Virus record (IMG/VR): IMGVR_UViG_3300028897_000536 | Strand: one strand, 5' to 3' | Source of the DNA: an uncultured virus (IMG/VR IMGVR_UViG_3300028897_000536) | Taxonomy: Duplodnaviria > Heunggongvirae > Uroviricota > Caudoviricetes | Length of the DNA stretch: 25,000 bases | Part shown: positions 4,878-25,000 of the stretch, in pieces | Position numbering within the stretch: position 1 is the stretch's first letter | Layout of the letters: each line of letters begins with the position of its first letter | Program-made: the position numbers and the translations under genes | The notes under the pieces: generated by a model | The model's database searches: none | Seen by the model: the letters and a program-made list of their open reading frames with translations, nothing else | What the model was told of the DNA's origin: nothing

Positions 4878-4896
4878 ATTCTATTTTTTTTAAGAA

Positions 4897-4924: not shown

Positions 4925-4938
4925 AATTTATTCACCTA

Positions 4939-5892: not shown

Positions 5893-5994
5893 TGTTTTTA
5901 CTCCCAAATTTTTTTAATGGTTTATCTTAATACCTTTCTTCTTATGCCCTCTTTTATCTTTTTTTATCTTTGTCAAAGGCATATGAATTTATTT

Positions 5995-8034: not shown

Positions 8035-8038
8035 AATT

Positions 8039-8620: not shown

Positions 8621-9102
8621 ATTTTTTTCGTTTTATATCCTGTTAATCTACGTTTAGGATCGAATTCAGCTGTAACTAAATATTCTGCTATTGGATTTGT
8701 GTCATTTTCTACATCTTCAGCAGAAGGATATGTTTTTATTACTCCTGATATCATATTATTATGATTATCATAAATTGGATCTATAATTCTATAATTTTCA
8801 TGAACTAATCCTAAAATTCTCTTTAGTCTTTCATTAGGTTCTACTATATGACTCTTAATTTCAGAACCTGCAAAAGTATATCTTTCTGCATTAGTTAAAT
8901 CTGTTCCTCCATCACATCTGATAGCGTATTCTAAATCTTCGTCTCCATCAAATTCATATTTATACCAACCGTCTCCTAATTCTGACATACTAACTCCTTC
9001 AATAACTAAAGATCCAGTATCTACTCTTCTAATATTAATAGTAGGAGATAATCCTAATTTTGGATATCCGTTATCAGTAAAAAAAGAAATAATAGTTATC
9101 AT
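8617..9102 (-). CDS. Putative virion structural protein
   Basis: GLSPTINIRR...MSELGDGWYKYEF beta-rich motif; ATGA-coupled to both neighbours in the head operon. Confidence 0.6.
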   Translation of the reverse strand: MITIISFFTDNGYPKLGLSPTINIRRVDTGSLVIEGVSMSELGDGWYKYEFDGDEDLEYAIRCDGGTDLTNAERYTFAGSEIKSHIVEPNERLKRILGLVHENYRIIDPIYDNHNNMISGVIKTYPSAEDVENDTNPIAEYLVTAEFDPKRRLTGYKTKKI

Positions 9103-9329
9103 TTTGCTGGACTTACCTCTATATAATTAATTACTGTTTTATCTAATAACTCTAATTCTGATTCTTCAGGATCTAAAGCTATAAAAATTTGTTTACGATA
9201 AGCAATATCTCCTGCTTTAATCAGCCATTTATAACTACATCCTTTATTATCTGATGATTTTAATAATAAAGAATTAGCTACATAATCTGAATTTTCTGCT
9301 ATACTAATTAATAAATCTGATACTTTCAT
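9099..9329 (-). CDS. Hypothetical protein
   Basis: 76-aa ORF overlapping neighbours (TAATG and ATGA junctions). Confidence 0.65.
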   Translation of the reverse strand: MKVSDLLISIAENSDYVANSLLLKSSDNKGCSYKWLIKAGDIAYRKQIFIALDPEESELELLDKTVINYIEVSPAK

Positions 9330-11389: not shown

Positions 11390-11718
11390 TATACAATCTT
11401 TCCAAATAATGCTCTTCCAGTAACTCTGAAAGGGGCATCTAATTCATCTTGAATATCTATCGAAGGACTCCATTTAATAACTAATTCATCTACAGATAAA
11501 GGAGCCATTTCTTTAGGAGCTTCAAGAATTTCTACTTCTTCGTTAGTTACTATAAATTGCAAATCTAATAAAGTTGCTTTTGAATCGTTATAAACATAAA
11601 ATTTAAATTCTTTAGAATCCCCTGCTGAAACTATTCCTAAAGGAAGAACAGAATTATCAGTTATTTCTTGAGTTAATTCTTTATCTTTATAGAATTTTAA
11701 ATTTTTAAAGCTTCCCAT
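11389..11718 (-). CDS. Small Ig-like protein (possible decoration protein)
   Basis: LGIVSAGDSKEFKFYVYN...P.EMAP.....LVIKWSP matches an Ig-like beta-sandwich pattern. Confidence 0.5.
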   Translation of the reverse strand: MGSFKNLKFYKDKELTQEITDNSVLPLGIVSAGDSKEFKFYVYNDSKATLLDLQFIVTNEEVEILEAPKEMAPLSVDELVIKWSPSIDIQDELDAPFRVTGRALFGKIV

Positions 11719-11719
11719 A

Positions 11720-13540
11720 TTATTCCTTACTTTCTTTATTTCCTAATAATTTATCCAATAATTTTTCTTTCTTTTCTTTTAGAACTTTTTCTTTCTCTTT
11801 AAGTTCTAAATCTTTTAATTTCATAGCTTCGTCTATAATTGATTTTTCTTCTTCTTCGAGAGCTTTATCAATAATGGCTTTATTAAGAGAAAGAGGTTCT
11901 AATTTTCCTTCTACTCTTTTTCTTTTTCTAACCCAAATTCCTTTTTTGTTTTTCCTTCCTATTTGTCTAATTACTGACCAAGCTACTCTAAAAGCTCTAG
12001 TTTCATTTTGATATTGTTTTAAAGCATTATTAAAGACTCTTAGAAAAACGCTTTGTAGATCTTTACTTACATTTTCTTTTACTTGTTTTGGTAGTTGGTT
12101 GATGTTTTGATAAGGAGCTCCTTCTAAACTGCCTACATCATATTCTTGTTTTTCTATTTCGTCCTTTTTATCTTCAGGAATTTCTTCTTCATCTATCTCT
12201 GATTCTGGACTAAATCCAGGTAAATCTATTCCTTGTCCTTCCTGATTTCTAGTAATAGGAGGATACATTGTTTCTTGTATTCCTTCTAAGTCTTCTTTTT
12301 CTCTACGATATACTTCTGTTTCAAAATCAACTTCTCCTATTAATTCTACTGCTGTTTTTGAAGAAACTCTTCCTCTATCATAAAGTTGTCTAATATGATC
12401 TTTAAATTCGGCTGTCATAAAAGCTCTTACTGGCGAAGAACTAATATACCATTCGTAATTAACCCACTTAGGGTGATCCTCTTTATTTTTTTCTATAATT
12501 ATTTTTATTAGTTCTTTTAAAATTTGTTTAAAATCTTTTACACCAGTTTTTACTTCTTCTATAAATGCTTTTGGATTTAAAATGCTTTCTCTTCTACTCG
12601 TACTAACTGCCTCAACTACATCAATAAATCCTAAACCTGCTAATATATTTCTTTCTGCACTTGCAAAAAGATCTTTATTAAAAATTGCTGATAAATCAGG
12701 AATTAAATGTTTAATTTCTTCATCAAAATTAGTAACTCTTGTAGGTACACTAGTTTTACTTGTATTTAATTTTAATTCTTGAATTTCTTGCATTAATGTT
12801 TTGAATTGTTCAAGGACTTTTGTTAATTGTTCGTCATTATAAGTGAAATCTTTTTGAATATATAAATTTTCTGTTCCTTTTTTGACTAAAAATAAATAAG
12901 GTATAATTCTATCAAGTATTTCTGTTTCTTTACTTTTAATTGATTCTATAATTTTCCAGTTATGATATACTCCTCGTTTAATAAGATAAGGAGTAGGATA
13001 TTTATCGAACCATCTTCCATATGGTTTAGTAATTATAACATTATTATCTAATTTATAATCAGTACTTGATCCTATATAATAATCATAATTAAGAATTCTT
13101 AATTTTTGATCTTTAGAATTTTTATCTTTAGCATGCACACTTTCTCCATCAATAAAATATAATTTAGATGGAACAATAACTCCTTGTATTTCTGTCCATC
13201 CTCCTATTTTTAAAATAGGAAAAGAAGAATATTTCCATCTCTCTTTAAAGTATTCTTTAGCTAATGGAGAAATACCTGATGGAATTTGTCCATTGAATTC
13301 CATGTTAATATTATCTAACCATTCTTGTAATATTTTATTAAAATCATCATTATCAGATTCTATTTTAAAATCAACAGAAGCACTATCTACAGCGAAATCT
13401 GTTAAAGAATCTACTAAACCTGAAACATCATCTTCCAACATACGTTTTATTTCTTTAATCTGTTCGTGATATTCTGTTGGAACTGTTATTTTTCTTGTTA
13501 ATGCACTTAAAAAATAATTAAGAATATTGGCATTATCCAT
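11720..13540 (-). CDS. Portal protein with C-terminal ChaB domain
   Basis: 606 aa immediately after TerL; acidic linker followed by PYQNINQLPKQVK...VFLRVFNNALKQY..ETRAFRVAWSVIR...GIWVRK, matching the ChaB pattern. Confidence 0.8.
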   Translation of the reverse strand: MDNANILNYFLSALTRKITVPTEYHEQIKEIKRMLEDDVSGLVDSLTDFAVDSASVDFKIESDNDDFNKILQEWLDNINMEFNGQIPSGISPLAKEYFKERWKYSSFPILKIGGWTEIQGVIVPSKLYFIDGESVHAKDKNSKDQKLRILNYDYYIGSSTDYKLDNNVIITKPYGRWFDKYPTPYLIKRGVYHNWKIIESIKSKETEILDRIIPYLFLVKKGTENLYIQKDFTYNDEQLTKVLEQFKTLMQEIQELKLNTSKTSVPTRVTNFDEEIKHLIPDLSAIFNKDLFASAERNILAGLGFIDVVEAVSTSRRESILNPKAFIEEVKTGVKDFKQILKELIKIIIEKNKEDHPKWVNYEWYISSSPVRAFMTAEFKDHIRQLYDRGRVSSKTAVELIGEVDFETEVYRREKEDLEGIQETMYPPITRNQEGQGIDLPGFSPESEIDEEEIPEDKKDEIEKQEYDVGSLEGAPYQNINQLPKQVKENVSKDLQSVFLRVFNNALKQYQNETRAFRVAWSVIRQIGRKNKKGIWVRKRKRVEGKLEPLSLNKAIIDKALEEEEKSIIDEAMKLKDLELKEKEKVLKEKKEKLLDKLLGNKESKE

Positions 13541-13541
13541 A

Positions 13542-15158
13542 TTATACTCCTTTTTTATCCCAATTTACAACACCAATTCCTGGTGTTTTCCTTACTATAG
13601 GTTTCGTTTGATTAAAATCTTTTTTTAACCATTGTGCTATTGCAAAAACTCTCCATGCTGAAAATAAATGATCTCCACTATCACAAATACATTCATATCT
13701 AGTTCTTGTATCTGTTCTAATAGAAATTACTTTTTCTAATTGTTTATCAAATTTGTAGTCTATAGGAAAAAAACATCTTCCTTCATAAAATAATTGTTTT
13801 AGTCTTGTAACTGACCATTCTGACATATATTCTTGTTTATATACTGGCATTCCTTTTTGAAAAATAACATTTCCTTTATCGTCTTTTTCAAAATCAACTT
13901 CTATTTTTTCTCTTCCTGCATATTTAACAATATTTTCTTTTGAATATATTAATTCTAATTCTCTTGCAATTGCTCTTCCTGTTCCATCTCCACAATCTAT
14001 ACCTATTACGTTTGCTTTTAATTTTTCTATAATATATTTGAAAACTTCTAATTGCTCATCATGTGTCAAATTATAAAGTACAATATTGTAGTTATATTTA
14101 TATTTGTCTTTAATTTCTGATAAAATGATAATATCAGTTCCTGCACTTTCTCCGATATCTGCACATATAAAAATACGATCTGCATTTTTTGGTCTATCTA
14201 AAATAATTAAATTTCTAAAATTATGATAACTGTCTTTATTAATTTCGAATCTTTTTATATCGTCTTTACTATAAAACTGTCTAACTCTTTGCATATCAAA
14301 TTCTGATATACCATCAGGAACTATTTCTCCTTTAACAAAAATTCTATAGTTAATTGTTTCTCCTCCGTATTCTTTTAGTCTTTCTTCTTTAGCTTTGTTA
14401 TCCCATTTAGGATTTACATATTGAGGGTAATTAATTACTTTTATTTTATTTGCTAAATCATTAAATATTCTACCAATAGGAGAATGTGTAGTAAAATTAG
14501 TCATTCCAGCTAATCTTATTACTGCTCCTAATTCTGATACTGATTCTTGTCTTTTTTTAAAAACTTCTTCTGTTTCAAAGCTTACTTCATCTCCCCACAG
14601 TTTACTTACATGCAATTGGTAAAATTGTTCTCCTGGAGATTTTCCTTTTAAGGTCATATTAACACCTTGAAGTTTCCATTTATTCTTTTTACCATAAAAT
14701 TTAATTTCTGGTTTAAAACTACATTTAAAATCCCACATTTTAAAAATAGGATGATATTCAAAAGCTGTTTTTACATCATCTAAAATTCCTCTAAGTCTTT
14801 TTTCATCTATAGAATAAAATGCTCCCCATAAATTTTCATCATAAAGTCCTGATAAAGCTATATCTATTTTAAGAGTTATTAAACTCTTTCCGTATAATCT
14901 TCCTCCTAAATTATAAATATCTCCAACATTCTTTTTTAATTGGAATTTCTCCTTATCGGTTAATCCTTCTATTTCAGTATCTATAATTGCTTCATATGAA
15001 AGAAATGGAATTTGATACAATCTGACATTACCTAGTTTTTCTTCGTCAAAACTGCCTAAATCATCAAAATTGTGAAATAAACACTCTGCTAGACATAAAG
15101 GATTATGCCAACATTGCATAAATTCTAATTCTTCTTTATTAATTTTTTCTAATAACAT
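13542..15158 (-). CDS. terL: Terminase large subunit
   Basis: Walker A GGRLYGKS, Walker B LWGDE, RNase H-like nuclease motifs ICADIG, IGIDCG, GDHLFSA. Confidence 0.9.
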   Translation of the reverse strand: MLLEKINKEELEFMQCWHNPLCLAECLFHNFDDLGSFDEEKLGNVRLYQIPFLSYEAIIDTEIEGLTDKEKFQLKKNVGDIYNLGGRLYGKSLITLKIDIALSGLYDENLWGAFYSIDEKRLRGILDDVKTAFEYHPIFKMWDFKCSFKPEIKFYGKKNKWKLQGVNMTLKGKSPGEQFYQLHVSKLWGDEVSFETEEVFKKRQESVSELGAVIRLAGMTNFTTHSPIGRIFNDLANKIKVINYPQYVNPKWDNKAKEERLKEYGGETINYRIFVKGEIVPDGISEFDMQRVRQFYSKDDIKRFEINKDSYHNFRNLIILDRPKNADRIFICADIGESAGTDIIILSEIKDKYKYNYNIVLYNLTHDEQLEVFKYIIEKLKANVIGIDCGDGTGRAIARELELIYSKENIVKYAGREKIEVDFEKDDKGNVIFQKGMPVYKQEYMSEWSVTRLKQLFYEGRCFFPIDYKFDKQLEKVISIRTDTRTRYECICDSGDHLFSAWRVFAIAQWLKKDFNQTKPIVRKTPGIGVVNWDKKGV

Positions 15159-15180
15159 TAATTTTTAAGATACGAGGAAA

Positions 15181-15846
15181 TTATGAACTTTTATCTGGTG
15201 AGCTATTATCGGTGGGATTTAATCTATAAATATGCTCTTCGAGCCAATCAATATAATCAGTAGATTCTACTTCTTCTCCCAATAAAACTTTAGCAACGTC
15301 TAGTTTAGCTATCTTTCCTTCTTTATATAATTTCCAAAGATGTTTATTAGCTAAAATTCTGTCTTCAAAAAAAGGATGTTTTAAAGCATCCCAAGCATCT
15401 GTTTTTATCTTTAGCATGACCTCTTTTTGACAATGAGGACATGGAAACGATCTAGAACCTTGATTTTCTTTAAGCCAAATTTTAAATTTTTTACCAAGAG
15501 TTTTAAACTTCTTGTAATTATCGTCATCTTTCTTTGTCTCAAATAGTCCTAGTTTATCCTTTAAAATAAGTATGATTTCCAAATTATCAGAAAGCAGTTT
15601 TTGTAAATGAGCAGGGGCTACTTCTGGCAATCCTGTGGCTTTATTTTTGCCTAACTTGCCTATTTTACCTTTTATTCGTTCCTGAAGGGATTCAGCGAAT
15701 ACTAACTCTTCCAATAATTGCAAATCACTCAAATTATCTATATGATAACGAGTTCTGTATTTATTAAATCTTTTTCGAGCTAAATTTCTTTCAGAGGTAT
15801 TTAATCCAGTACCTTTAAATTTATATTGTCCTATATTTTCTGTCAT
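15181..15846 (-). CDS. terS: Terminase small subunit (positional)
   Basis: First gene of late operon directly upstream of terL; helical and basic; SD AAGGA. Confidence 0.55.
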   Translation of the reverse strand: MTENIGQYKFKGTGLNTSERNLARKRFNKYRTRYHIDNLSDLQLLEELVFAESLQERIKGKIGKLGKNKATGLPEVAPAHLQKLLSDNLEIILILKDKLGLFETKKDDDNYKKFKTLGKKFKIWLKENQGSRSFPCPHCQKEVMLKIKTDAWDALKHPFFEDRILANKHLWKLYKEGKIAKLDVAKVLLGEEVESTDYIDWLEEHIYRLNPTDNSSPDKSS

Positions 15847-15857
15847 TATGTCCTTAC

Positions 15858-15898
15858 AATAAAAACGCCCATTGTAGATGATTATCTAAACAATGGGC
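15858..15898 (-). terminator. Intrinsic terminator in the leader of the late operon
   Basis: Minus strand GCCCATTGT-tt-AGAT-aatc-ATCT-ACAATGGGC then GTTTTTATT, ending ~12 nt before the terS ATG. Confidence 0.7.
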
Positions 15899-15961
15899 TT
15901 CTATAATTAAATATATATGAAAAAATATATATATAAGTAGTATTCATCCCTTCTATTATAT

Positions 15962-15991
15962 AGTATAACATATATAAGGGGGGTTTGTCAA
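15962..15991 (-). promoter_or_regulatory. sigma70/sigmaA-type promoter for the late operon
   Basis: Minus strand TTGACA-N18-TATACT with extended -10 TG. Confidence 0.7.
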
Positions 15992-16042
15992 GGGTTAAAT
16001 GACATTATTTTGTAATATATCTATAATATAAAGACTATTAAA

Positions 16043-16064
16043 TTATCTCAATATATTGAGATAA
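16043..16064. repeat. Perfect 22-bp palindrome
   Basis: TTATCTCAATATATTGAGATAA is its own reverse complement. Confidence 0.9.
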
Positions 16065-16077
16065 AATCAATAACTTA

Positions 16078-16091
16078 TGTAAACGCTTCCA
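16078..16091. promoter_or_regulatory. cre/LacI-like operator
   Basis: TGTAAACGCTTCCA, close to the cre consensus TGWAANCGNTNWCA. Confidence 0.45.
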
Positions 16092-16697
16092 TTTCCTCCC
16101 CCCAAACCCCCTCCTAACCATCGATCCGTCTCATTTCATTCGACTCCTCTCGGTCAGCTTCGCTGTCCTTTGCGGACTTTAGTGTCCGCTTGGGGCTTTT
16201 ATAGGATATAACTTATATCTAATATAGTCTAAAACCTATAATCTTAAAAGAAGCCGAACCGATCTAAAAACCTATAACTATGCTAAACGTTACCCCTATG
16301 GAGAGGGCTTTCTTACCGCTTTATAGCGGTAAATCATCACTTTCGTGATTCTCGGCAATTTATTGTTATTCGGTGGCTTTTTCTTAAAAAAAGACTGTTT
16401 TTAGGTGTTTTTAGGTCATTTTGGCTCGTTTTAAGGGTACTATTGGTGTATATTATTTAAAAAATGGGCGGTTTGCTAAATTCTACCCTATACCCTAAAA
16501 TGCTATAAACCCTTTAAAATCAATGGTGTTAAGGTAATCTAATTATAAGATAGATTACTAAAAGCGGTCTATCTTTACATATTGCGTTTATCATTGATAA
16601 CCGCTTTGCCTTTATCCCTTAACCTCTTATAATTACCCTTTAAGGCATTATTTAAGGTTGATTAGATTTTATCTTGTCAAAGAGCAGTTAAGACTTT

Positions 16698-17228
16698 TTA
16701 GAGGTCTTTTAAGATTGCTTCTCCTTGTCTATAAGATAAGATTTTTTTATAAATGCTTAAAGCTATAAGTCTTTGAATTTTTGAAGTAGTTGCGGAATAG
16801 TATTTTAAATTAAAATAGTTGTCTTTTTCGGAATAAATCAAGGTAGAATAAGAGAAGATTTTATAATCCGTTGAAGTCTTTATACCATAGCAAGAATTAC
16901 CTTTAAAAGATTGTCTTTGATTTATTCGGCTTTCAATCTCGGCATTTTTGCTATAACCTTTTGGAGTATCGGCTTGATTGTCTTTTACATATTCGCTTAC
17001 ATAGACTTGGAATTTACCGCAAGAAGTTATTGCGTAATAGTTGCCTTTTTTGATTTTATTTAAAAATTGATTAGCTGTTAATGCGATTTCGGTTTCACTT
17101 CCAAAACCGCTATTATCTACAAAGTATCTTTTAACCTCTTTAAATCCTAAAGGGTTATAAGTTAAATTCGGGCATTTTTTAAAAATGTTTTCGTCTTTGT
17201 CTTTTATTGCTTTATAAGGTCTTTTCAT
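16698..17228 (-). CDS. Early hypothetical protein, apparently two fused small phage domains
   Basis: N-half FVDNSGFG..E.ALT..QF...YAI...G.FQVY; C-half IFSYSTLIY...YYSATTSKIQ; SD AAGGAG. Confidence 0.75.
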   Translation of the reverse strand: MKRPYKAIKDKDENIFKKCPNLTYNPLGFKEVKRYFVDNSGFGSETEIALTANQFLNKIKKGNYYAITSCGKFQVYVSEYVKDNQADTPKGYSKNAEIESRINQRQSFKGNSCYGIKTSTDYKIFSYSTLIYSEKDNYFNLKYYSATTSKIQRLIALSIYKKILSYRQGEAILKDL

Positions 17229-17257
17229 TTTTTAAATCTCCTTTTTAAAGGTTGTTA

Positions 17258-17536
17258 TTAAAGAAAATCGGCTTTTATACTTTCAGTTGTCAATAATACG
17301 CTTGATTGATTATTTATCTTTTTAATGCTTTCAATAATAGCATTTACAGCGATTTTATTATAAATTAACTGCCTTTTTGATTTTTCGGTTAAAATCTCAA
17401 TTTTAAGCGATTTTTCTTTTATCCCTTGCCAATAACCGCAAGCGTTAATTATAGTATAACCTTTATAATAAAGATTGATAAATCCTTTTATGCTTTCAAT
17501 GTTTTTGTTTTCTGTATAAAGCGTGTATTTTATCAT
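17258..17536 (-). CDS. PII-like / SAM-lyase-like small protein
   Basis: GYTIINACGYWQGIKEKSLKIEI...IIESIKKINNQSSVLL parallels the G.Y..E..EKTV...A..LA..EQDCVLV pattern of T3 SAMase and DUF3574-like proteins. Confidence 0.5.
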   Translation of the reverse strand: MIKYTLYTENKNIESIKGFINLYYKGYTIINACGYWQGIKEKSLKIEILTEKSKRQLIYNKIAVNAIIESIKKINNQSSVLLTTESIKADFL

Positions 17537-17991
17537 AATTTTATGAGCCTTTTTCTTTTTAAATAATTTATAGCAAAATTGTCCGCTTCAATCTCGGTTA
17601 AATAACTTTTTCTGTATAACTTAAAATTATCATAACTTATCAATTCTCTTGCTTGTATAAAATGTCTAAATTCGTGAAGTATAGCAAAAAGAAAATTTAA
17701 TTTAAAAGACTTTAAAAAATCAAGTCTTTTTTGCCTTCCTTCGTAATAACAATCTTTATACCCTTTTTTGAAAGCAGAATAAACGCTTGCTAAATTTATT
17801 ATAATTTTTGATTTGGAAAGTTTACTTCCATCATAAAAATTATGGCAATACGAGGTTAAATAATCATAGTCTATTGTTACATCAATAAAAGCGTAAAAAG
17901 ACTTTTCAATCTTAAATTCCTTTAAAAGATTGTCAAAAATTTTGTAAGCGATTTTTTTGTAAATTTTTTCTTTTCTAAATAAATTTATCAT
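17533..17991 (-). CDS. Zincin-like metallopeptidase (HExxH)
   Basis: FAILHEFRHFIQ plus downstream EIEADNFA (ImmA/IrrE-like signature). Confidence 0.7.
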   Translation of the reverse strand: MINLFRKEKIYKKIAYKIFDNLLKEFKIEKSFYAFIDVTIDYDYLTSYCHNFYDGSKLSKSKIIINLASVYSAFKKGYKDCYYEGRQKRLDFLKSFKLNFLFAILHEFRHFIQARELISYDNFKLYRKSYLTEIEADNFAINYLKRKRLIKL

Positions 17992-17992
17992 T

Positions 17993-18124
17993 TTATAAAA
18001 AGGTTGTTATTTTATACCATTTAAAAGGGTTTATTTTAAAAGATAGAATTTTACCGCTTAAAAACCTTTTAAAAAGTTTTTTCTTTTTTCTTTTATTTAT
18101 TGTTTTTATTTTCTCTTTATACAT
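17993..18124 (-). CDS. Small basic hypothetical protein (43 aa)
   Basis: MYKEKIKTINKRKKKKLFKRF...; fills the gap exactly and overlaps the upstream stop via ATGTATAA. Confidence 0.5.
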   Translation of the reverse strand: MYKEKIKTINKRKKKKLFKRFLSGKILSFKINPFKWYKITTFL

Positions 18125-18356
18125 TGTTTTTTAAAAATTTATTTTCGCTTGTAAGTTTTTCAATCTCGGTTGCTAATTTATTTTTTAAAATCTCGCTTTG
18201 ATTTAATTCTATTGATAATTTTTCAAGATAATCTAATTTATTATAATCGGTTGAAAAATCAGCGATAACTTTATTTAAAGAGATTATTTTCTTTTCAATC
18301 TCTTTCCGCTTACTTATCAAGGTAAGATAATTATTTTTTAAATCTTTACATCTCAT
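18117..18356 (-). CDS. Coiled-coil hypothetical protein
   Basis: 79-aa heptad-rich ORF within the leftward early operon. Confidence 0.65.
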   Translation of the reverse strand: MRCKDLKNNYLTLISKRKEIEKKIISLNKVIADFSTDYNKLDYLEKLSIELNQSEILKNKLATEIEKLTSENKFLKNNV

Positions 18357-18454
18357 AGTATTTTTATTTTTAATTTATAGCTTTTATTTTTAGGATAAAT
18401 TTTTATCCCTTTATTTTTTAATTTTTTTATAATGTTTTTAATGTATTTATACAT
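18353..18454 (-). CDS. Small basic hypothetical protein (33 aa)
   Basis: MYKYIKNIIKKLKNKGIKIYP...; ATGTATAA overlap upstream, ATGA overlap downstream. Confidence 0.5.
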   Translation of the reverse strand: MYKYIKNIIKKLKNKGIKIYPKNKSYKLKIKIL

Positions 18455-18698
18455 TTTTTAAAGTTTTTAGTTTTTCTAAAAAATAAATTTTTTCTTTTTT
18501 TATACTATCTTCAGTTGATAAATCATTTTCATTGAAGATTAAAAAAGTTTTGTTTTTTCCTTGCCAGAATTTAATCTCTTCAAAAATTTTCAATAAATTT
18601 GCGGTATAGGTTAAAATGCGATAATCATTTTCAAATACGATTAAATGATAATTTTCACTTCTGATTTTTTTATACTCTTTTAATGTTATACTATACAT
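18447..18698 (-). CDS. Hypothetical protein (first gene of leftward early operon)
   Basis: SD AAGGAG and promoter upstream. Confidence 0.7.
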   Translation of the reverse strand: MYSITLKEYKKIRSENYHLIVFENDYRILTYTANLLKIFEEIKFWQGKNKTFLIFNENDLSTEDSIKKEKIYFLEKLKTLKNV

Positions 18699-18746
18699 TT
18701 TTTTAAATCTCCTTTTTTCAATTTACCTTTTCTTGTTTTCGCTTTA

Positions 18747-18775
18747 AGTATAACATAACCGCTTAAAAAAAACAA
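18747..18775 (-). promoter_or_regulatory. Leftward early promoter
   Basis: Minus strand TTGTTT-N17-TATACT with extended -10 TG. Confidence 0.6.
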
Positions 18776-18803
18776 TAGAAAACGGAAAAATTTTTATCTA
18801 AAT

Positions 18804-18832
18804 TGTAAGCGTTTTCTTGGTAAGCGTTTTCA
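18804..18832. promoter_or_regulatory. Tandem cre/LacI-like operators
   Basis: TGTAAGCGTTTTCT (18804-18817) and GGTAAGCGTTTTCA (18819-18832) between divergent promoters. Confidence 0.55.
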
Positions 18833-18851
18833 AAAAAAAATAAATTTTATC

Positions 18852-18880
18852 TTGATTTAACTTTTAAAAAATGTTATCTT
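18852..18880 (+). promoter_or_regulatory. Rightward early promoter (weaker match)
   Basis: TTGATT-N17-TATCTT with extended -10 TG. Confidence 0.45.
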
Positions 18881-18984
18881 TAAAGTGCCAATAATAACAG
18901 CTAAAAGGCAATAAAAAAATTTGATAATAGTATTTAATAAATAAGGAGAGTAAATTTTCTATAATAGGATTGAAAAATTTAAAA

Positions 18985-18998
18985 TGAAAACGCTTTCA
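18985..18998. promoter_or_regulatory. cre/LacI-like operator
   Basis: TGAAAACGCTTTCA matches TGWAANCGNTNWCA. Confidence 0.55.
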
Positions 18999-19126
18999 GT
19001 ATTGAGCCGAGATTTTAAGCTGATTTTCCAATATCGCAATATAGCGGTGGTTTTTCGGCAATATCTAATATATCAGTTTTTCAAAGGTTTTTTGGAATAT
19101 CAAGAAAATTAAATTTTCAATATCTC

Positions 19127-19174
19127 TTGACAATATCGGAAAAATATGTTATATCTTAAACGGAAAGGGAAAAT
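19127..19174 (+). promoter_or_regulatory. Early promoter-RBS cassette copy 1
   Basis: TTGACA-N17-TATATC (TG extended) TTAAACGGAAAGGGAAAAT then ATG at 19175. Confidence 0.7.
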
Positions 19175-19214
19175 ATGAATAAACAAGAATTTATAGAAAA
19201 ATGGAGATTTTGAA

Positions 19215-19631
19215 TTGAAGATACAGTTTTTAGAAAAAATTGCGGAATATTATAATGAAAAATATAATCTTAATACTTTTATAGATATATGCCATAAAGG
19301 AATATCTACTTATTATAGCATTAAAGGAAATTATATATATTTTAGTCAAGAATATGTTAAAAATCTATACAATAGACAAGATTTTAAAAAAAGAATAATA
19401 AATTTGAAAGAGATAAATCAAGCATATATATTTTGTATTTTACACGAAATTTATCACGCCATAGATTATAAATTTAATTCTAATAGATATAAACAAGATT
19501 TAAAAAATTTGAATTTATTAGAATATAATACAAATAGAATTTATCATAATTCTTTAAATTTTGAAATTAAAGCCGATAAATTTGCTAATAAAGAATTAAA
19601 AAAATGGATTAGAATTTTCAAAAAAAGTTGA
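19215..19631 (+). CDS. Zincin-like metallopeptidase (HExxH)
   Basis: FCILHEIYHAIDY and FEIKADKFA; start uncertain (see 19175 uORF/frameshift finding). Confidence 0.7.
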   Translation: MKIQFLEKIAEYYNEKYNLNTFIDICHKGISTYYSIKGNYIYFSQEYVKNLYNRQDFKKRIINLKEINQAYIFCILHEIYHAIDYKFNSNRYKQDLKNLNLLEYNTNRIYHNSLNFEIKADKFANKELKKWIRIFKKS

Positions 19632-19639
19632 TTTAGCCC

Positions 19640-19692
19640 TTGACAAAGTTTAAAAAATATGTTATATCTTAACCGAAAGGAGAAAAGAAAAA
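19640..19692 (+). promoter_or_regulatory. Early promoter-RBS cassette copy 2
   Basis: TTGACA-N17-TATATCTTAACCGAAAGGAGAAAA then ATG at 19693. Confidence 0.75.
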
Positions 19693-19980
19693 ATGAACGA
19701 AAATAAAGATTTAAAAAATATTTGCCAAAGTTGCGAAAGACAAGGAAAATGTTTTTTTGAAAGAAATAATTTAGTTTGTAAAAAGATTGTAGAAGCCGAA
19801 AAAGAATTAAATCAAAGAAAACAAGCCGATTTAGCTTTTGAAAAAGCAATTTGGCAAGGTAGATTATCAGAAAATCCTAAAGCCGAAAATTACGCAGGTA
19901 AATATATGTATATGGGAAAATCAGAAAACGGACAATACGATAACTTTAAAAATATTATAACAAGAAGATATGATGTATAA
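19693..19980 (+). CDS. Hypothetical protein
   Basis: Strong promoter/SD; Cys-rich N-terminus; AFEKAIWQGRLS...YAGKYMYMG...FKNIITRRY C-terminal module. Confidence 0.8.
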   Translation: MNENKDLKNICQSCERQGKCFFERNNLVCKKIVEAEKELNQRKQADLAFEKAIWQGRLSENPKAENYAGKYMYMGKSENGQYDNFKNIITRRYDV

Positions 19981-20332
19981 AAGAAAAAGAAGGCAATATA
20001 CAAAAGTTAAGTGGCTTGTTAATCCGCAATCAATAAAAGCCGAGATTAAAAAAAATCCTATTCTTAAATCTTATTTAGGATATTGGATTAAATCATCAAG
20101 GGTTAGTGGTTGGGGTAGAAGTTGCGGATATATACAAATTGATACTTTTGCGGTTGATTGGAAAAATATCAGAAGAACTGATTATGCTGATTATAACGAA
20201 AGTATTTTTTCTTGTAAAATTTTACTTTCTGCTGAAAACGATTACTCAAAAAAAGGTTGGGAAGAAAAACATTTAGAAGAAATTAAAAAAATTGCCGAAA
20301 AATTTAATATAGAATTAAAAATTATAAATTAA
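19970..20332 (+). CDS. Hypothetical protein
   Basis: 120-aa ORF overlapping the upstream stop. Confidence 0.7.
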   Translation: MMYKRKRRQYTKVKWLVNPQSIKAEIKKNPILKSYLGYWIKSSRVSGWGRSCGYIQIDTFAVDWKNIRRTDYADYNESIFSCKILLSAENDYSKKGWEEKHLEEIKKIAEKFNIELKIIN

Positions 20333-20343
20333 GAAAGGAGATT

Positions 20344-20565
20344 ATGAAAACTTTAAATTTTGAAATTGATGTAGAAAATGGAGATTTTTCTTGTAAATAT
20401 TGTCAAGAAGCATTAAAATATTATAAAAAATTATTAAAAAGGCATAAAGGATATTACGGAACTGTTAATATAAAAAAACAAGAAAAAATAAAAGGAATAG
20501 TTTTACGACCTGATTATAATAGTAATGGAATTTTAAATCATTGGCATATTGATATTGAGGAATAG
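20344..20565 (+). CDS. Hypothetical protein
   Basis: SD AAGGAG; 73 aa. Confidence 0.7.
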   Translation: MKTLNFEIDVENGDFSCKYCQEALKYYKKLLKRHKGYYGTVNIKKQEKIKGIVLRPDYNSNGILNHWHIDIEE

Positions 20566-20570
20566 ATTAA

Positions 20571-20613
20571 GGAGAGAGGATTATTTATATTTATTACCTC
20601 TCTCCGTTTTCTT
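20571..20613 (+). terminator. Intrinsic terminator
   Basis: GGAGAGAGG-N17-CCTCTCTCC followed by GTTTTCTT. Confidence 0.6.
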
Positions 20614-20621
20614 AAAATAAA

Positions 20622-21092
20622 ATGATTTATATTAAATATAAAACAAAATTTTTTAAAGAAAATGAAATTAACGCTTTAGAAAAAGGTTATAGATTAAAAG
20701 CAATTATAAGTGATATTAAAACTTATAGATTGAAAGCGATTATAAGAATAATAAAAAACGAATTAAAAACTACCTTAAAAAATTATCCCGAAATTGATAT
20801 TTATATTGATACAAGATTTACAAGTAGAGTATTAGGAAGATTTTATATCTCTAATTTAAAAACTTTAAAGACTTATCCAAAAACAGAAAATCCTTTTATA
20901 GTGCTTTATAACTTTAACATTATAAAATCTTTTAATAATCCTGTTTATAGTTTAAAAGAAGTGCTTTTACACGAATTTTTACATTTTAAACAATGGTTAT
21001 TGAATAAAGAATTAAAACACGATAGAATTTTAAAAGCGAGTGAAGATAAAAATATAAAGAATACTTATTATAAATTAAAAAGATTTGTTTAA
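20622..21092 (+). CDS. Zincin-like metallopeptidase (HExxH)
   Basis: VLGRF...IVLY...LKEVLLHEFLHFKQW...H, a SprT/zincin-like pattern. Confidence 0.65.
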   Translation: MIYIKYKTKFFKENEINALEKGYRLKAIISDIKTYRLKAIIRIIKNELKTTLKNYPEIDIYIDTRFTSRVLGRFYISNLKTLKTYPKTENPFIVLYNFNIIKSFNNPVYSLKEVLLHEFLHFKQWLLNKELKHDRILKASEDKNIKNTYYKLKRFV

Positions 21093-21397
21093 TGGAATTT
21101 ATTTATAGAGTAGAAAATAAAGACGGACAAGGTTGTTATATGAACGAAATAGAAGAAATTAACTTTATATTGGCAAGGCATTTTGAAGAATATTATCCTA
21201 CTCCAAAAGAAGATTTAGGAATTGAAAGAAATCCTAAATACAACGAAATTTGCGGATTTAAAGATATAAAACAAGCTGAAAATTGGTTTAATAATTACGA
21301 ACTTTGGGAACTAAAAAAATTAGGATATGAATTAAAAAAAGTTAAAGTTAAAAAAATTACTGCTATTGGAGAAAAGCAAGTTTTAGCGATAAAATGA
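21092..21397 (+). CDS. Hypothetical protein, possible minimal ADP-ribosyltransferase fold
   Basis: IYRVE..G.G.Y...P.P..D...CGF....A..WF...L..LGY...GEKQVL. Confidence 0.4.
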   Translation: MEFIYRVENKDGQGCYMNEIEEINFILARHFEEYYPTPKEDLGIERNPKYNEICGFKDIKQAENWFNNYELWELKKLGYELKKVKVKKITAIGEKQVLAIK

Positions 21398-21476
21398 TTA
21401 AAAATCTTACGAGGATTGATTTTAAGAGGGGTATAAGAAGGCAAGCTATATTATTATACCCTACATTTTTAGAATT

Positions 21477-22148
21477 ATGAAAACTTATATAAATAAAAAT
21501 TACGATTTACCGATATGTAAATTTAGGGGTAAAGTTTATGATGTTAAATACCCTTGTTATATCTCTTTAAAACTTGACGGAGAATTTACTTACCTTGTAA
21601 AACAAGGAGATAAAGTATATACCATAAATAAAAGCGAATACGGAAGATATAGAGAAGATTTTAATGCTTTAAATGAATTTAAGCAGTTAAAGGATATTCC
21701 TAACGGAATTTATTTAGCTGAATTGTATTTTGGAGAAGGAAGAACTAAAAAGGATTTTAATAATTTTTTACGAAATAAAACTAACGATAATTTGAATTTA
21801 GCGATTTGGGGTATTTTAGAATTAGAAGGAAAAAGAGGACTAACAACGGAAGATATTTTTAAAGTATTAGAAGAAATTAAAATAAAAACAAAAGACAAAG
21901 ATTTTAAAAATTTTTCTGTTATTCCTTTTTGGAAAGTAAAAAATAAAATACAATTACAAAATTTAATACAAGAGTGGATTTTAGATAATGGATTTGAAGG
22001 ATTAGTTATTAGAAATTTAATTGCGATTTGGAGAAACGGTCAATCAAATAATTTTATAAAAGTAAAAACGAAAGCGAGAGAAATAGGATATAAAAATATA
22101 AATGGAAACGAAATAAAATTTAGATTTGAAAAAGGAATTTGGATATGA
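21477..22148 (+). CDS. ATP-dependent ligase-type nucleotidyltransferase (adenylation) domain without OB fold
   Basis: Motif I SLKLDGE, motif III AELY, motif IV EGLVIR, motif V FIKVK; ends ~25 aa after motif V. Confidence 0.75.
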   Translation: MKTYINKNYDLPICKFRGKVYDVKYPCYISLKLDGEFTYLVKQGDKVYTINKSEYGRYREDFNALNEFKQLKDIPNGIYLAELYFGEGRTKKDFNNFLRNKTNDNLNLAIWGILELEGKRGLTTEDIFKVLEEIKIKTKDKDFKNFSVIPFWKVKNKIQLQNLIQEWILDNGFEGLVIRNLIAIWRNGQSNNFIKVKTKAREIGYKNINGNEIKFRFEKGIWI

Positions 22149-22182
22149 AATATAACTTATTGAAACTCAAGGACTTACATAA

Positions 22183-22196
22183 TGAAAACGCTTACA
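22183..22196. promoter_or_regulatory. cre/LacI-like operator
   Basis: TGAAAACGCTTACA, 28 bp upstream of TTGACA at 22225. Confidence 0.55.
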
Positions 22197-22224
22197 AAAA
22201 AAATTAAAAAAGTGTCTTTTGGAC

Positions 22225-22275
22225 TTGACAAAAAAGTTTTTTTATGGTATATCTTAACCGAAAGGAGAAAACGAT
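22225..22275 (+). promoter_or_regulatory. Early promoter-RBS cassette copy 3
   Basis: TTGACA-N17-TATATCTTAACCGAAAGGAGAAAA; 24 bp identical to copy 2. Confidence 0.75.
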
Positions 22276-22566
22276 ATGAAAAATAAATGCGGAAAAACAA
22301 GAGATATAAATAATCCTTACGAAATTTGGCAATCTTTTAACGGACAATGGGAGTGGAGAGTATTAAAAAAATATCAATCTCCTGAAAAAGAAAGACTAAA
22401 TCCTTACGCAAGGTGGTATTGTGGGGTTAAAAGCCCTTTCACTTTTGGTAGTTTTGAATATGGAGATACTTATATCAAAGATATTGTAGAAAATGCGAGG
22501 TTAATAAAAGGTATTCCTGACTTAAATACTATTGATAGACCTAACGATAAAGAAAATATATTTTAA
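22276..22566 (+). CDS. Hypothetical phage early protein
   Basis: GKTR...PYEIW...WEWRVLKKYQ...YARWYC.VKSP.T.GSFEYGDTY; follows promoter cassette. Confidence 0.8.
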   Translation: MKNKCGKTRDINNPYEIWQSFNGQWEWRVLKKYQSPEKERLNPYARWYCGVKSPFTFGSFEYGDTYIKDIVENARLIKGIPDLNTIDRPNDKENIF

Positions 22567-22567
22567 A

Positions 22568-22723
22568 ATGATAAAGGGAAGGAAAGCGAATTTGATTATT
22601 AAAATACAATTACAAAGGCATTATAACGGATTATCTTATCAAGAAGTTTTAAATAGTGTTAAGGGATATAAAAATAAAAAAGCGGAAGAATTATTAACAA
22701 TTTTAAAAAAAGAAAAAGATTAA
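22568..22723 (+). CDS. Hypothetical protein (51 aa)
   Basis: ATG right after the upstream stop is preferred to the TTG start in the ORF track. Confidence 0.55.
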   Translation: MIKGRKANLIIKIQLQRHYNGLSYQEVLNSVKGYKNKKAEELLTILKKEKD

Positions 22724-22725
22724 AT

Positions 22726-23007
22726 ATGGTAAATGAAAAAGAAATAAAAAAAGTGCTATTCCAATTAAGGAAGTGTAAAAGAAAAACTAAAGTTAAATCT
22801 CCTGAAAGAAGGGAAATTAACAAAAGGATAAGAGAACTTAAACAAAAAATACAATATGATATTCCTGATACTGAAAAACAATCTTTAATAGAAGAAATTT
22901 ATAAAATTAGACCTGAATATAAAGAATTAAAAATAAATTTATTAAAGTTTTCTACCGAGCAATTAAAAAAACATTTAAAGTTAATTAAAAGAAAGGAGAG
23001 TAAATGA
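22726..23007 (+). CDS. Basic helical hypothetical protein
   Basis: 93-aa ORF in the operon. Confidence 0.7.
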   Translation: MVNEKEIKKVLFQLRKCKRKTKVKSPERREINKRIRELKQKIQYDIPDTEKQSLIEEIYKIRPEYKELKINLLKFSTEQLKKHLKLIKRKESK

Positions 23008-23171
23008 GCATTTTTGATTTAGCGACTTTACAATTACAAAGAGAAGGTAAAGTATTTGCAAAAGATAATTTAAAACTTCTTATTGATAGAGCAATTACGA
23101 TTAGAAAATTCTTTGACAATCAAGAGAGAAATAAAAAAGTATTGGAAAATAGATATAGAAAGGAGAGATAA
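23004..23171 (+). CDS. Hypothetical protein (55 aa)
   Basis: MSIFDLATLQLQREGK...; SD AAGGAG; ATGA and TAATG overlaps. Confidence 0.7.
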   Translation: MSIFDLATLQLQREGKVFAKDNLKLLIDRAITIRKFFDNQERNKKVLENRYRKER

Positions 23172-23386
23172 TGAAAATTGTTAATTATATTATTGCTTAC
23201 GAAAGCGGAGAATTAAACAATGAAGATACCCTTAAATTATTCTCTAAATTGATTAAAAGCGGTCAATGTTGGTCTTTACAAGGTCATTATGGAAGAACTG
23301 CTAATGCTTTGATTGAAAGAGAATTGATTGACAAAAAAGGAAAAATAAATTGGGAATTATATAACGAATTAGTAGATAGATTATGA
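23171..23386 (+). CDS. Small conserved-looking phage early protein
   Basis: IIAYESGEL...LF..LI.SG.CWSLQGHYGRTA..LI motif; SD AAGGAG. Confidence 0.8.
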   Translation: MKIVNYIIAYESGELNNEDTLKLFSKLIKSGQCWSLQGHYGRTANALIERELIDKKGKINWELYNELVDRL

Positions 23387-23556
23387 ACGATAATATGGAA
23401 AACGAAATGGTAAATAGTTGGCTCTTTACTGCGGTAAGAGAAGGTATAGAAAGATTAGGATTAGAAGGTTGCCTTGAAAGTATAGAAAGTATAGTTAATC
23501 CTGTTTTAAGGTGGAAATTAAGGCAAGTTTTTGGAAATATTTTATTTAAAAAATGA
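23383..23556 (+). CDS. Hypothetical protein (57 aa)
   Basis: MNDNMENEMVNSWLFTAVREGIERLG...; ATGA overlaps at both ends. Confidence 0.65.
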   Translation: MNDNMENEMVNSWLFTAVREGIERLGLEGCLESIESIVNPVLRWKLRQVFGNILFKK

Positions 23557-23921
23557 AACATTTAATACTTACAATTCTTATAATTTTGGCTTTAGGTTAT
23601 TTATATAACAATAATCCTACAAAAGACTTATGGAGAATTACTGCTTATTGTGGTTGTGAAAAATGTTGTGGAAAATATGCTGACGGAATAACTGCAAGCG
23701 GTAAAAAAGTTAAAGTAGGGTTTGTGGCTAATAATTGGTTGCCTTTTGGAACGAAAGTTAAAATAGAAGGATTAGGCATTTATATAGTAGAAGATAGAGG
23801 AAGTAAAAAATATTTTGGAACGAAGGAAGAAAAAAGAAAAGCATTAGATATTTACTTTGAAGAACACGAAGAAGCAAAAAGATTTGGGGTAAAATATTTA
23901 AGAGTAAAGATTTTAAAATGA
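23553..23921 (+). CDS. 3D-domain (MltA-like) protein with N-terminal membrane anchor/signal
   Basis: ITAYC..CCG..DGITASG...LPFGTKV.I...Y.VEDRG...LDIYF..HEEA..FG; hydrophobic N-terminus. Confidence 0.85.
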   Translation: MKHLILTILIILALGYLYNNNPTKDLWRITAYCGCEKCCGKYADGITASGKKVKVGFVANNWLPFGTKVKIEGLGIYIVEDRGSKKYFGTKEEKRKALDIYFEEHEEAKRFGVKYLRVKILK

Positions 23922-24088
23922 TAGAGCAATTTAAAAGAAACAAAACAAAATATAAAATAACTTGTAGTAAGTGCGGAAAAATAGAAATTATACAAGCTAT
24001 AAATCCGATATTAACTGATAATTGTTTTGGTTGTATTTTAAAAGATTTAGAAGAAGAAAGAAAACGATTAAAAAAGGAGAAACAATGA
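23918..24088 (+). CDS. Small Zn-ribbon protein (56 aa)
   Basis: CSKC...CFGC; ATGA overlaps at both ends. Confidence 0.65.
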   Translation: MIEQFKRNKTKYKITCSKCGKIEIIQAINPILTDNCFGCILKDLEEERKRLKKEKQ

Positions 24089-24282
24089 ACGATAGCCCTA
24101 AATACGATACTGATAAAACTCCTCTTGAAAATGCCCTTGCGAAAGCAGAATATTACGAAAGCATAGGAGATAAAGAAAATGCGGAAAAAATGCTTAACTT
24201 GGCTCAAAAGTTTGAAGAAACTTTAAAGAAAAATAGGGAAGTTAAAACTGATTTAAAAAAATATGAAGAAAGAGAGGAATAA
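24085..24282 (+). CDS. Hypothetical helical protein (65 aa)
   Basis: ATG 24085 with SD AAGGAG is preferred to TTG 24022. Confidence 0.7.
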   Translation: MNDSPKYDTDKTPLENALAKAEYYESIGDKENAEKMLNLAQKFEETLKKNREVKTDLKKYEEREE

Positions 24283-24462
24283 ATGAAAAAAGATTTTTTG
24301 GTAATGGAAGATAAAACAGAAATTATTGACATTGAAGGAAGATACTTTTGTAGTCATTGTGCGGAAGAAATCAGAAACGATTACGAAGTGAACGAGAATT
24401 GCCCTCATTGTGATTACCTTTTTATTAACATAATCCCTGTTGAAAATTTAAAGGCGGTGTAA
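24283..24462 (+). CDS. Small Zn-ribbon protein (59 aa)
   Basis: FCSHC...CPHC; SD GAGG. Confidence 0.7.
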   Translation: MKKDFLVMEDKTEIIDIEGRYFCSHCAEEIRNDYEVNENCPHCDYLFINIIPVENLKAV

Positions 24463-24463
24463 A

Positions 24464-24796
24464 TTGTCAGATTTAGATATTAAAGTAAAAGAATTTTTAG
24501 CTGATTGTAAAAGGATTAAAGAATTAAAAGGCATTTTTAAGGATTTAGACTTATGTTTTCCTTACGCTGATGAAGAAAGACAGAAAAAAATTGATGAAGG
24601 AATTGCTAAAACGGAAAACGAAATCAAAACTCTTACAGAAAATCTACATAAATTTACAAAAGAAGAATTTAGTTTAATCTATAATAAATTTGAAATAATC
24701 CTCTTACAAGTTTGTCCTTTTTGTAGTGGATATATCATAAAATATTCTAATGAAATATTTTGTGGAAAGTGTAAATATTTATTTTATGAAGAATAG
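24464..24796 (+). CDS. Hypothetical protein with C-terminal Zn ribbon
   Basis: Coiled coil then CPFC...CGKC; TTG start. Confidence 0.65.
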   Translation: MSDLDIKVKEFLADCKRIKELKGIFKDLDLCFPYADEERQKKIDEGIAKTENEIKTLTENLHKFTKEEFSLIYNKFEIILLQVCPFCSGYIIKYSNEIFCGKCKYLFYEE

Positions 24797-24811
24797 AAAG
24801 GAGAAGAATTT

Positions 24812-25000
24812 ATGGGTTTTATTAAGCAGTTAGATTTGTTTATACAAGATTATAGTGAGAACGAAGAAGAATATTATAAATTGCTTAATGAAATTGATTA
24901 TTATTTACATAGTAAAAAAATTCCTAAATCAGAAAAAGCGAGAGAGATTTTAAGAAAATTTATCCCTGTTGAAGATTATTTAAAAACAATTTTAGAAGCG
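24812..25000 (+). CDS. Hypothetical protein (partial, runs off window)
   Basis: SD AAGGAG, ATG 24812, open to the window end. Confidence 0.65.
   Translation, partial: MGFIKQLDLFIQDYSENEEEYYKLLNEIDYYLHSKKIPKSEKAREILRKFIPVEDYLKTILEA

Follow-up and report, generated by a model that had tools for sequence, protein, structure and literature searches.

The window analysed here is a stretch of 25,000 nucleotides (nt) from an uncultured phage of the Caudoviricetes (IMG/VR record IMGVR_UViG_3300028897_000536). The phage belongs to an uncultured family with genomes of ~100 kilobases (kb), and the source runs are marine sediment and seawater. The window is composed of a late operon and a zone of small genes that is nearly free of short palindromes containing G or C. 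The transition between the two, referred to below as the step, falls inside a non-coding gap of 850 base pairs (bp) upstream of the small-terminase-like and large terminase genes. The main parts of the window, with protein lengths in amino acids (aa), are the following.

1-15846, minus strand: late (virion and packaging) operon with ordinary palindrome content, from the map of open reading frames (ORFs)
15847-16697: non-coding gap of 850 bp containing the step, from the site list and the sequence
16438-25000: purged zone, open at the window's right end, from the site counts
16698-18698, minus strand: five small genes (176, 92, 152, 79 and 83 aa) reading towards the step, from the ORF list
19127-19155, plus strand: predicted promoter copy 1 (repeat family D1), in a 53-nt repeat at 19121-19173
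19640-19668, plus strand: predicted promoter copy 2, in a 53-nt repeat starting at 19634
22225-22253, plus strand: predicted promoter copy 3, in a 53-nt repeat starting at 22219 and kept in the relative L083 at position 2281
19215-25000, plus strand: nineteen small genes reading away from the step, from the ORF list

Sites were counted on the left (window 1-16264) and on the right (window 16265-25000), and counts are given as left/right. The sequence-only reading, made from the letters of the window without database searches, had put about 45 GATC sites on the left and none on the right, had described CTAG, CATG and TCGA as frequent on the left and missing on the right, and had placed the last GTAC at 16437. 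The computed counts agree with it: GATC 48/0, CTAG 45/0, CATG 29/0 and TCGA 23/0, with the single right-side GTAC (22/1) at 16437. The counts of the other mixed palindromes present are ACGT 10/1, TGCA 44/2 and AGCT 92/11. The right-side expectation per mixed palindrome is 18.1 from mononucleotide composition and 5.8-24.6 from an order-2 Markov model. When the 136 strand-symmetrised 4-mers are ordered by their observed/expected ratio on the right, palindromes fill the ten lowest places, and TGCA comes 12th.

The step is sharp. G/C-containing 4-mer palindromes number 13-27 in every 1-kb bin of 1-16000, 8 at 16-17 kb, and 1, 2, 2, 0, 3, 0, 3 and 1 in the successive bins of 17-25 kb. The final sites before the zone are GATC at 16261, ACGT at 16287 and GTAC at 16437; beyond them, just 11 AGCT and two TGCA occur. 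The step is therefore at most ~180 bases wide (16261-16437). The zone at 16438-25000 contains 13 such palindromes compared with 146.7 expected (mononucleotide), and late region 1-15158 contains 293 compared with 312.5. A 29-nt imperfect inverted repeat (16243-16271 / 16407-16435, 79% complementary) flanks the step.

Controls and the range of purged words

The G + C content (GC) falls from 0.286 left of the step to 0.248 right of it, and the right side is AT-rich (GC 0.20-0.28) and strongly strand-skewed. The loss could then be a by-product of the low GC, the purine skew or the codons used by short genes, or the step could come from a chimeric contig. Artefacts of this kind are extremely improbable. 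The skew is equally strong on the left, and in 300 synonymous-codon shuffles of the right-hand genes (24 ORFs) 84.4±7.5 G/C-containing 4-mer palindromes are retained (minimum 66), whereas the actual genes contain 9. The left-hand genes, likewise shuffled, contain 306 versus 322±14. When the right-hand proteins are recoded with left-side codon usage, 90.3 sites are obtained. Thus, amino-acid content, codon usage and lower GC do not account for the loss, which neither the shuffle nor the Markov controls reproduce.

The assembly is continuous across the step. Contigs of runs X1 (14903-19202) and X2 (12001-19162), which come from different studies, span it without difference. The nearest assembly contains a 22.8-kb contig (G001:C59) that is 99.87% identical over 22,845 bases, crosses the step and ends exactly at window 25000. 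The window is therefore not chimeric at the step. Contig ends near 16107, 16266 and 16442 in two low-depth runs were considered as termini and rejected, as those runs are fragmented everywhere.

AGCT and TGCA, which had been described as persisting on the right, are indeed present, but at only a third and a seventh of the codon-shuffle expectation (7 vs 21.7 and 2 vs 13.4 in the right-hand genes). The nine that are left in zone genes all lie where a codon ending in A or T is followed by the alanine codon GCT or GCA.

The purge is not limited to plain 4-mer palindromes. ATTAAT occurs 32/0, with a right-side expectation of 24 from composition and 14.5 from shuffles. The 56 six-base palindromes containing G or C are represented on the right by just one AACGTT, inside the step, and one TTGCAA. 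Interrupted palindromes (observed/expected on the right: GANTC 0/11.0, CTNAG 0/9.8, GTNAC 1/5.6) and asymmetric words (GAATG 0/9.8, GGATG 1/6.9, CCAG 1/8.3) are also lost, and the left-side counts of these six words match expectation. At or above expectation on the right are TCNGA, CANTG, AGNCT, TGNCA, the A/T-only 4-mers, AAATTT, TTTAAA and TTATAA; the depletion is motif-selective, as the sequence-only reading held. A general avoidance of palindromes or hairpins was rejected, since AATT, TTAA, TATA, ATAT and the three A/T-only 6-mers do not fall below expectation and several interrupted palindromes are not depleted. The word pattern is that expected of many separate enzyme specificities.

A sister record in IMG/VR (G002, 44.6 kb) overlaps window 1-14588 and extends 30 kb further, bringing the total covered to ~55 kb. 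Some words are avoided throughout this sequence and not just locally. CCGG, GGCC, GCGC and CGCG, each 0/0 in the window, are missing from all of the ~55 kb (G002 expectation 35.7, order-2 Markov), and GGNCC occurs 0 times and GCNGC once in the sequence covered. Outside the zone, the counts of GATC, CTAG, CATG, TCGA, GTAC and ATTAAT come close to expectation, with 48 GATC sites versus 39 expected in the late region and 130 in G002. CCWGG occurs 24 times in G002, five times on the left of the window and 0 times on the right. G002 has 7-30 G/C-containing palindrome sites per kb throughout. The non-structural genes of its far side are included, and those with ordinary sites encode a LicD/glycosyltransferase, a short-chain dehydrogenase, IspD, an M24 peptidase, SbcCD-like proteins and RlaP. 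Three circumstances had been named beforehand as arguing against a local purge, and all three are excluded: an effect of composition or codon usage by the order-2 Markov model and the codon shuffles, a chimera at the step by the bridging contigs, and depletion through all non-structural genes by the G002 genes that keep their sites.

Beyond the window's left end, G002 also contains a surface-polymer-type cluster (L007:13084-17102) encoding a LicD and family-2 glycosyltransferase fusion, UPF0047, a short-chain dehydrogenase and an IspD-like cytidylyltransferase. Judged by these family matches, the cluster looks like a ribitol/teichoic-acid-type pathway.

Gene content and probable early character of the zone

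The part of the zone inside the window comprises 24 small ORFs, and a 516-bp gap separates the five minus-strand genes from the nineteen plus-strand genes. The plus-strand genes are accompanied by three copies of the 53-nt repeat (19121, 19634 and 22219). In each copy, TTGACA and TATATC are separated by a 17-nt spacer with TG and followed by a conserved leader and a ribosome-binding site. The TTGACA-17-TATATC pattern has three matches in the window versus 0.02 expected by chance; no copy was found in the late region, the rest of the window or the 44.6 kb of G002. The three repeats are probably sigma-70-type promoters for the host polymerase. All three read away from the step, the nearest lying 2.7 kb from it. 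With this host-type promoter consensus, the zone looks like an early region.

Protein families were searched for in 38 window ORFs and 38 G002 ORFs, with PHROGs at E<=0.001 and Pfam at E<=0.01. The individual genes assigned in the window are listed below.

1-3489, minus strand: tail protein, 1163 aa (PHROG tail-protein family matches)
11720-13540, minus strand: 606-aa protein with a ChaB domain (Pfam)
13542-15158, minus strand: large terminase, 538 aa (predicted fold match)
15181-15846, minus strand: 221-aa ORF in the small-terminase position (named by position only)
17533-17991, minus strand: small HExxH protein, one of the five step-facing genes
19215-19631 and 20622-21092, plus strand: HExxH paralogues (paralogue alignment)
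21477-22148, plus strand: 223-aa protein with an ATP-dependent DNA-ligase adenylation domain (PHROG 114)
23171-23386, plus strand: DUF7417 protein (E 2.3e-23)
23553-23921, plus strand: 3D-domain protein (weak match, below the Pfam cut-off)

The three HExxH paralogues, all inside the zone, are 138-156 aa long, ~30% identical and invariant at HE..H. They show weak similarity to SprT-like, DUF3920 and DUF4344 proteins and have homologues upstream of the terminase in two complete relatives (G005 and G006). The 223-aa ligase-like protein matches PHROG 114 with an E of 3.6e-19 and is below cut-off in Pfam; no relative of it was found among the viral contigs searched. It contains the adenylation domain only, and its length would not accommodate a full ligase with an OB domain. 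The RlaP protein of G002, an RNA-repair-type nucleotidyltransferase, is encoded elsewhere than this ligase-like protein. Several zinc-ribbon proteins are present among the nineteen plus-strand genes, and the five step-facing minus-strand proteins have weak or no family matches. The ESM Atlas gives a lead, and a lead only, from the 176-aa protein to viral DUF8033-like clusters (score 0.83). For two zone proteins it otherwise returned unnamed viral or archaeal clusters with a weak SprT-like lead (15% of one cluster), from which no function follows.

On the late side, the 538-aa protein was identified as the large terminase by the fold search alone; sequence profiles (Pfam, PHROGs, NCBIfam and a PDB profile) gave no match. 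Its AlphaFold2 model (mean pLDDT, the predicted local distance difference test, 66.7) matches the large terminases of D6E and T4 (gp17) in Foldseek with E values of 2.6e-12 and 3.9e-12 and a probability of 1.0. The 606-aa protein, in the portal position after the terminase, has its ChaB domain at the C terminus (Pfam E 4.1e-11). The tail-protein gene contains 128 bases (2098-2225) that are missing from G002, which is otherwise 99.8-100% identical.

In the gap, a stretch at 15924-16038 is 74% identical to the corresponding gap of the relative G003. It overlaps two back-to-back sigma-70-like matches of 11/12, at 15999-16027 (plus strand) and 15991-15962 (minus strand), and is a possible late or packaging control element. 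Rfam and transfer RNA scans of 15500-19500 and of the whole window gave no match.

Relatives and continuing selection

Among 50,697 GenBank phage records, the window has no megablast match and its terminase no tblastn match. The terminase has at least 403 homologues in metagenomes, on contigs of up to ~110 kb. Six homologues of 850-941 aa (P0010, P0051, P0071, P0085, P0105 and P0116) contain intein and LAGLIDADG domains (PF14890, PF14528 and PF05203), and these domain matches mark them as intein-bearing terminases.

A profile scan of IMG/VR yielded 52 loci, 26 of them with enough flank to compare the two sides of the terminase. An upstream purge was found in one of the 26 (L054, from record G003), the terminase of which is ~66% identical to that of the window. 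The observed/expected ratio in this locus is 0.10 upstream of the terminase and 0.68 downstream. The purge is clade-specific.

The purged zone of G003 is bounded on both sides. Ten strictly avoided words together occur 5 times in its 15.3-kb zone, 19 times in 3.5 kb on the terminase side and 17 times in 4.3 kb past the far edge. A 1350-bp gap before the terminase operon contains the near edge, and all zone ORFs are oriented away from this gap. The far edge, judged by the strictly avoided words, is at an intergenic gap, 4110-4498. Observed/expected ratios per 2 kb are 0.6, 0.34, 0.27, 0.24, 0.11, 0.14, 0.10, 0.0, 0.13, 0.15, then 0.26 and 0.79, and the depletion grows stronger on approaching the terminase-side edge.

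Three complete relatives of 101-104 kb, with ends overlapping by 99-114 bases, are without a local purge. Their word counts, observed/expected for GATC and GTAC, are:

G005: GATC 0/251
G006: GATC 0/268, GTAC 0/268; CCGG 0, GCGC 0, GGCC 0
G007: GATC 0/267; GGCC 0, CGCG 1

Over the stretches fetched for relatives' loci of at least 8 kb, GATC is at or below 10% of expectation in 28 of 33 and GTAC in 16 of 33. CTAG is missing in 8 of the 33, and the set of missing words varies from genome to genome.

Nine of the 24 zone proteins have homologues upstream of the terminase, in the same place, in unpurged relatives. The counterpart genes of G006 lie at 82.9-89.8 kb and its terminase at 96.3 kb, and the sites per 2 kb over 82-90 kb number 7, 20, 24 and 16. 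Since the homologues occupy the same position with ordinary counts, the zone module is ancestral; it was purged in place, and the rest of the genome was released.

L083, a 9.3-kb metagenome contig, is 75-87% identical to window 20614-24999 and then runs 3.7 kb further. Because it carries the purge over this extension, the zone is at least 12.4 kb long in the window's lineage. Its sites are 18 AGCT, 11 TGCA and one GTAC, and neither GANTC nor CTNAG occurs in it. Aligned over 3293 nt, the window and L083 are separated by 571 substitutions (17% diverged), not one of which gave rise to any of the ten strictly avoided words on either side. Neutral simulations with the same number and spectrum of substitutions created 21.7±4.7, with a minimum of 9 in 2000 runs. 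The purge is therefore maintained by continuing selection. For AGCT and TGCA, 9 sites were created versus a neutral 10.2±3.0.

The zone might instead have been imported from a lineage that avoids palindromes genome-wide, with the step as the recombination joint. The fall in GC across the step and the hypervariability of the zone, which appears as many short variant contigs in four runs, are in line with such an import, as is the finding that just 9 of the 24 zone proteins have homologues in unpurged relatives. However, those nine are located at the corresponding position upstream of the terminase, a purge of all palindromes is seen in none of the 26 loci and none of the three complete genomes, and an import leaves the 571 later substitutions without any avoided word unexplained. 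Mosaic import is highly unlikely.

Self-protection would also predict a local purge and a relaxed late region. According to this hypothesis of Davison, put forward for the A1 protein of T5 (available portion of bioRxiv 10.1101/866236), an early phage nuclease cuts host DNA at short palindromes and the zone lacks its targets. At least a dozen unrelated words are purged here, far beyond the recognition of one nuclease, and no nuclease domain was found among the 24 zone ORFs with PHROGs or Pfam. L083, moreover, tolerates AGCT and TGCA differently, as changing host enzymes would predict. Self-protection is accordingly judged an unlikely cause of the purge.

The short variant contigs at the window's right end suggest strain diversity. 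Six of seven linear family contigs of 82-93 kb (L015, L021, L023, L030, L033 and L050) end 3-9 kb upstream of the terminase, and the window's contig and G001:C59 end 9.8 kb upstream of it. Breaks in assembly seem to fall in the early region, for which strain diversity may be responsible. A search of the nearest assembly with G003 DNA for an extension past 25000 gave just two 40-base matches at chance level, and an exact 43-base word from the window's right end had no match among the genome contigs searched.

A proposed order of exposure to host restriction

To our knowledge, the order or time of exposure is the only established mechanism that makes vulnerability to restriction depend on position. 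Selection against sites hits the whole incoming molecule unless vulnerability is position-dependent. On this ground, we read the zone, with a probability of roughly 60%, as early, first-exposed DNA, by analogy with the first-step-transfer DNA of T5 or the early region of T7. The stretch from ~16.4 kb to beyond 25 kb would be an early region transcribed by the host polymerase. It would lie unprotected inside the cell while host restriction enzymes are still active, and sites in it would be lethal, so that selection would strip it of nearly every short palindrome and other restriction-type words. A product of the zone would then neutralise restriction, and the remaining genome would enter or become accessible afterwards, which would leave it free to hold GATC, CTAG and other words at chance frequency. 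The step, in the gap by the terminase genes, would be at or near a fixed packaging end, and the early block would be the arm that is packaged last and ejected first. The right end of lambda is likewise packaged last and ejected first. We infer the entry order, the physical end, the fixed ends and the protective early factor from the analogy with known phages.

T5 and BF23 are restricted only via sites in their first-step-transfer DNA, as stated in the available parts of PMC10644984 and bioRxiv 10.1101/866236. As far as those texts go, the zone resembles theirs in comprising ~8-15 kb of small genes, mostly of unassigned function, in two inversely oriented units with a long, repeat-rich non-coding border. 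The sites are also gone from the block (9 vs 84.4±7.5) and kept elsewhere (306 vs 322±14), where they would be harmless here too. The phage differs from T5 and BF23 in belonging to an unrelated uncultured ~100-kb family, and in a purge that spans nearly all short palindromes rather than a few 6-mers.

These resemblances could also indicate a T5-type two-step transfer of opposite polarity, in which the genome end is at the zone's far edge and the step is an injection-stop region in the repeat-rich gap. The size of the zone is T5-like (at least 12 kb here and ~15 kb in G003), and the far edge in G003 coincides with the intergenic gap 4110-4498. The pre-early genes of BF23 form inversely oriented units as the zone genes do, and its long non-coding border contains both direct and inverted repeats (available part of PMC10644984). 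On the other hand, contig k-mer depth in X1 and X2, a coarse measure, is 10-16 over the zone versus 16-20 on the late side. Since the depth is not doubled, the zone is not a collapsed long terminal repeat and, by this coarse measure, differs from T5 in not lying within a long (~10 kb) direct terminal repeat. None of the 24 zone ORFs (8.7 kb of the zone) has a PHROG or Pfam match annotated as a T5 pre-early protein (A1, A2 or dmp), library models for which were not confirmed. In addition, the G003 zone is transcribed outward from the terminase-side edge, so that its promoters would enter last under the T5-type polarity, and its purge deepens towards that same edge. For these last two reasons, a genome end on the terminase side is favoured, and a T5-type transfer is retained as a minor possibility.

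The reading as first-exposed DNA also draws on Murciavirus. According to the available text of PMC12455610, sensitivity depends solely on motifs in the early-injected region, and those in late DNA do no harm. Its authors regard such avoidance as senseless for headful packaging, from which fixed genome ends would follow for the phage described here. The zone may be similar to the early regions of T7-like phages and Murciavirus, as far as that text describes them, in having host-type promoters, here predicted, that point inward from one edge. It is different in that the genome is ~100 kb with siphovirus-type tail genes, compared with a 40-kb podovirus, and in that the five edge-nearest genes read outward. 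The motifs treated in the available part of PMC12455610 are of Type I, and the signal here is mostly of the Type II kind. No acidic DNA mimic like Ocr of T7 was recognised by PHROGs, Pfam or the isoelectric points (pI) of the 24 proteins.

Several observations weigh against first exposure at a fixed end. Window 25000 is where the assembly breaks off and not where the genome ends, since a contig and a loose end run past it, as does L083. The fixed end proposed at the step draws on contigs, which show no molecule ends. The other 25 of the 26 loci have up/down ratios of 0.55-1.44 and no local purge; as these relatives have the same gene order, first entry alone does not force a purge. A 92-kb sample of the nearest genome, G001, a host by binning only, displays no strong palindrome avoidance. 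In this sample, GC is 0.27-0.31, the observed/expected ratio of G/C-containing palindromes is 0.70-1.10 and five N6/N4 methyltransferase family matches are found, figures that are not used as evidence. Within the zone, the five step-nearest genes read towards the step and not inward, and 17 of the 24 proteins have a pI of at least 8.9, the most acidic being a 59-aa zinc-ribbon protein with a pI of 4.5. Anti-restriction, DNA-mimic, methyltransferase and base-modification genes were not recognised among the 38 window ORFs and 38 G002 ORFs of the ~55 kb, ~40 kb of the genome being outside. As a whole, the interpretation offered by the sequence-only reading stands in part: the selectivity, the confinement to the zone, the continuing selection and the early look of the zone support it, and the T5 analogy fails on two tested features.

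Genome-wide avoidance, as surveyed by Rusinov et al. 2018 (PMC6286503), where site position was not considered, is also present in this family. CCGG, GGCC, GCGC, CGCG, GGNCC and GCNGC are absent or nearly absent across ~55 kb, and relatives are without GATC or GTAC throughout. The difference is that all other words here are avoided locally, with a step edge. One clade may have exchanged a genome-wide deletion of a few words, above all GATC, for ~12-15 kb of early DNA nearly free of restriction-type words, with the other 85% of the genome back to chance; we put this forward tentatively, at somewhat less than even odds. If true, it would imply a broad-spectrum shield or staged entry provided by proteins of no known anti-restriction family, and the purge footprint alone would mark the leading arm and the early-late border in uncultured phages.

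Restriction-site-free first-entering DNA is known already, and position-dependent vulnerability to restriction has been established experimentally for T5-like and T7-like phages. The window presents an extreme, cleanly bounded case in a family that is uncultured and unrelated to these phages; within the open-access full-text literature, no account was found of almost all short palindromes being purged locally. Without a cultured relative, the sequence alone yields a clean footprint, with a step within 180 bp, about one-tenth of the expected sites and measurable ongoing selection. If the zone is indeed first-exposed early DNA, such footprints would allow the leading arm, fixed-end packaging and the early/late border to be predicted in metagenomic phages without reads. 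A broad anti-restriction function should then lie among the at least 24 small zone proteins, and the purged and tolerated words would record the restriction specificities deployed by the host population.

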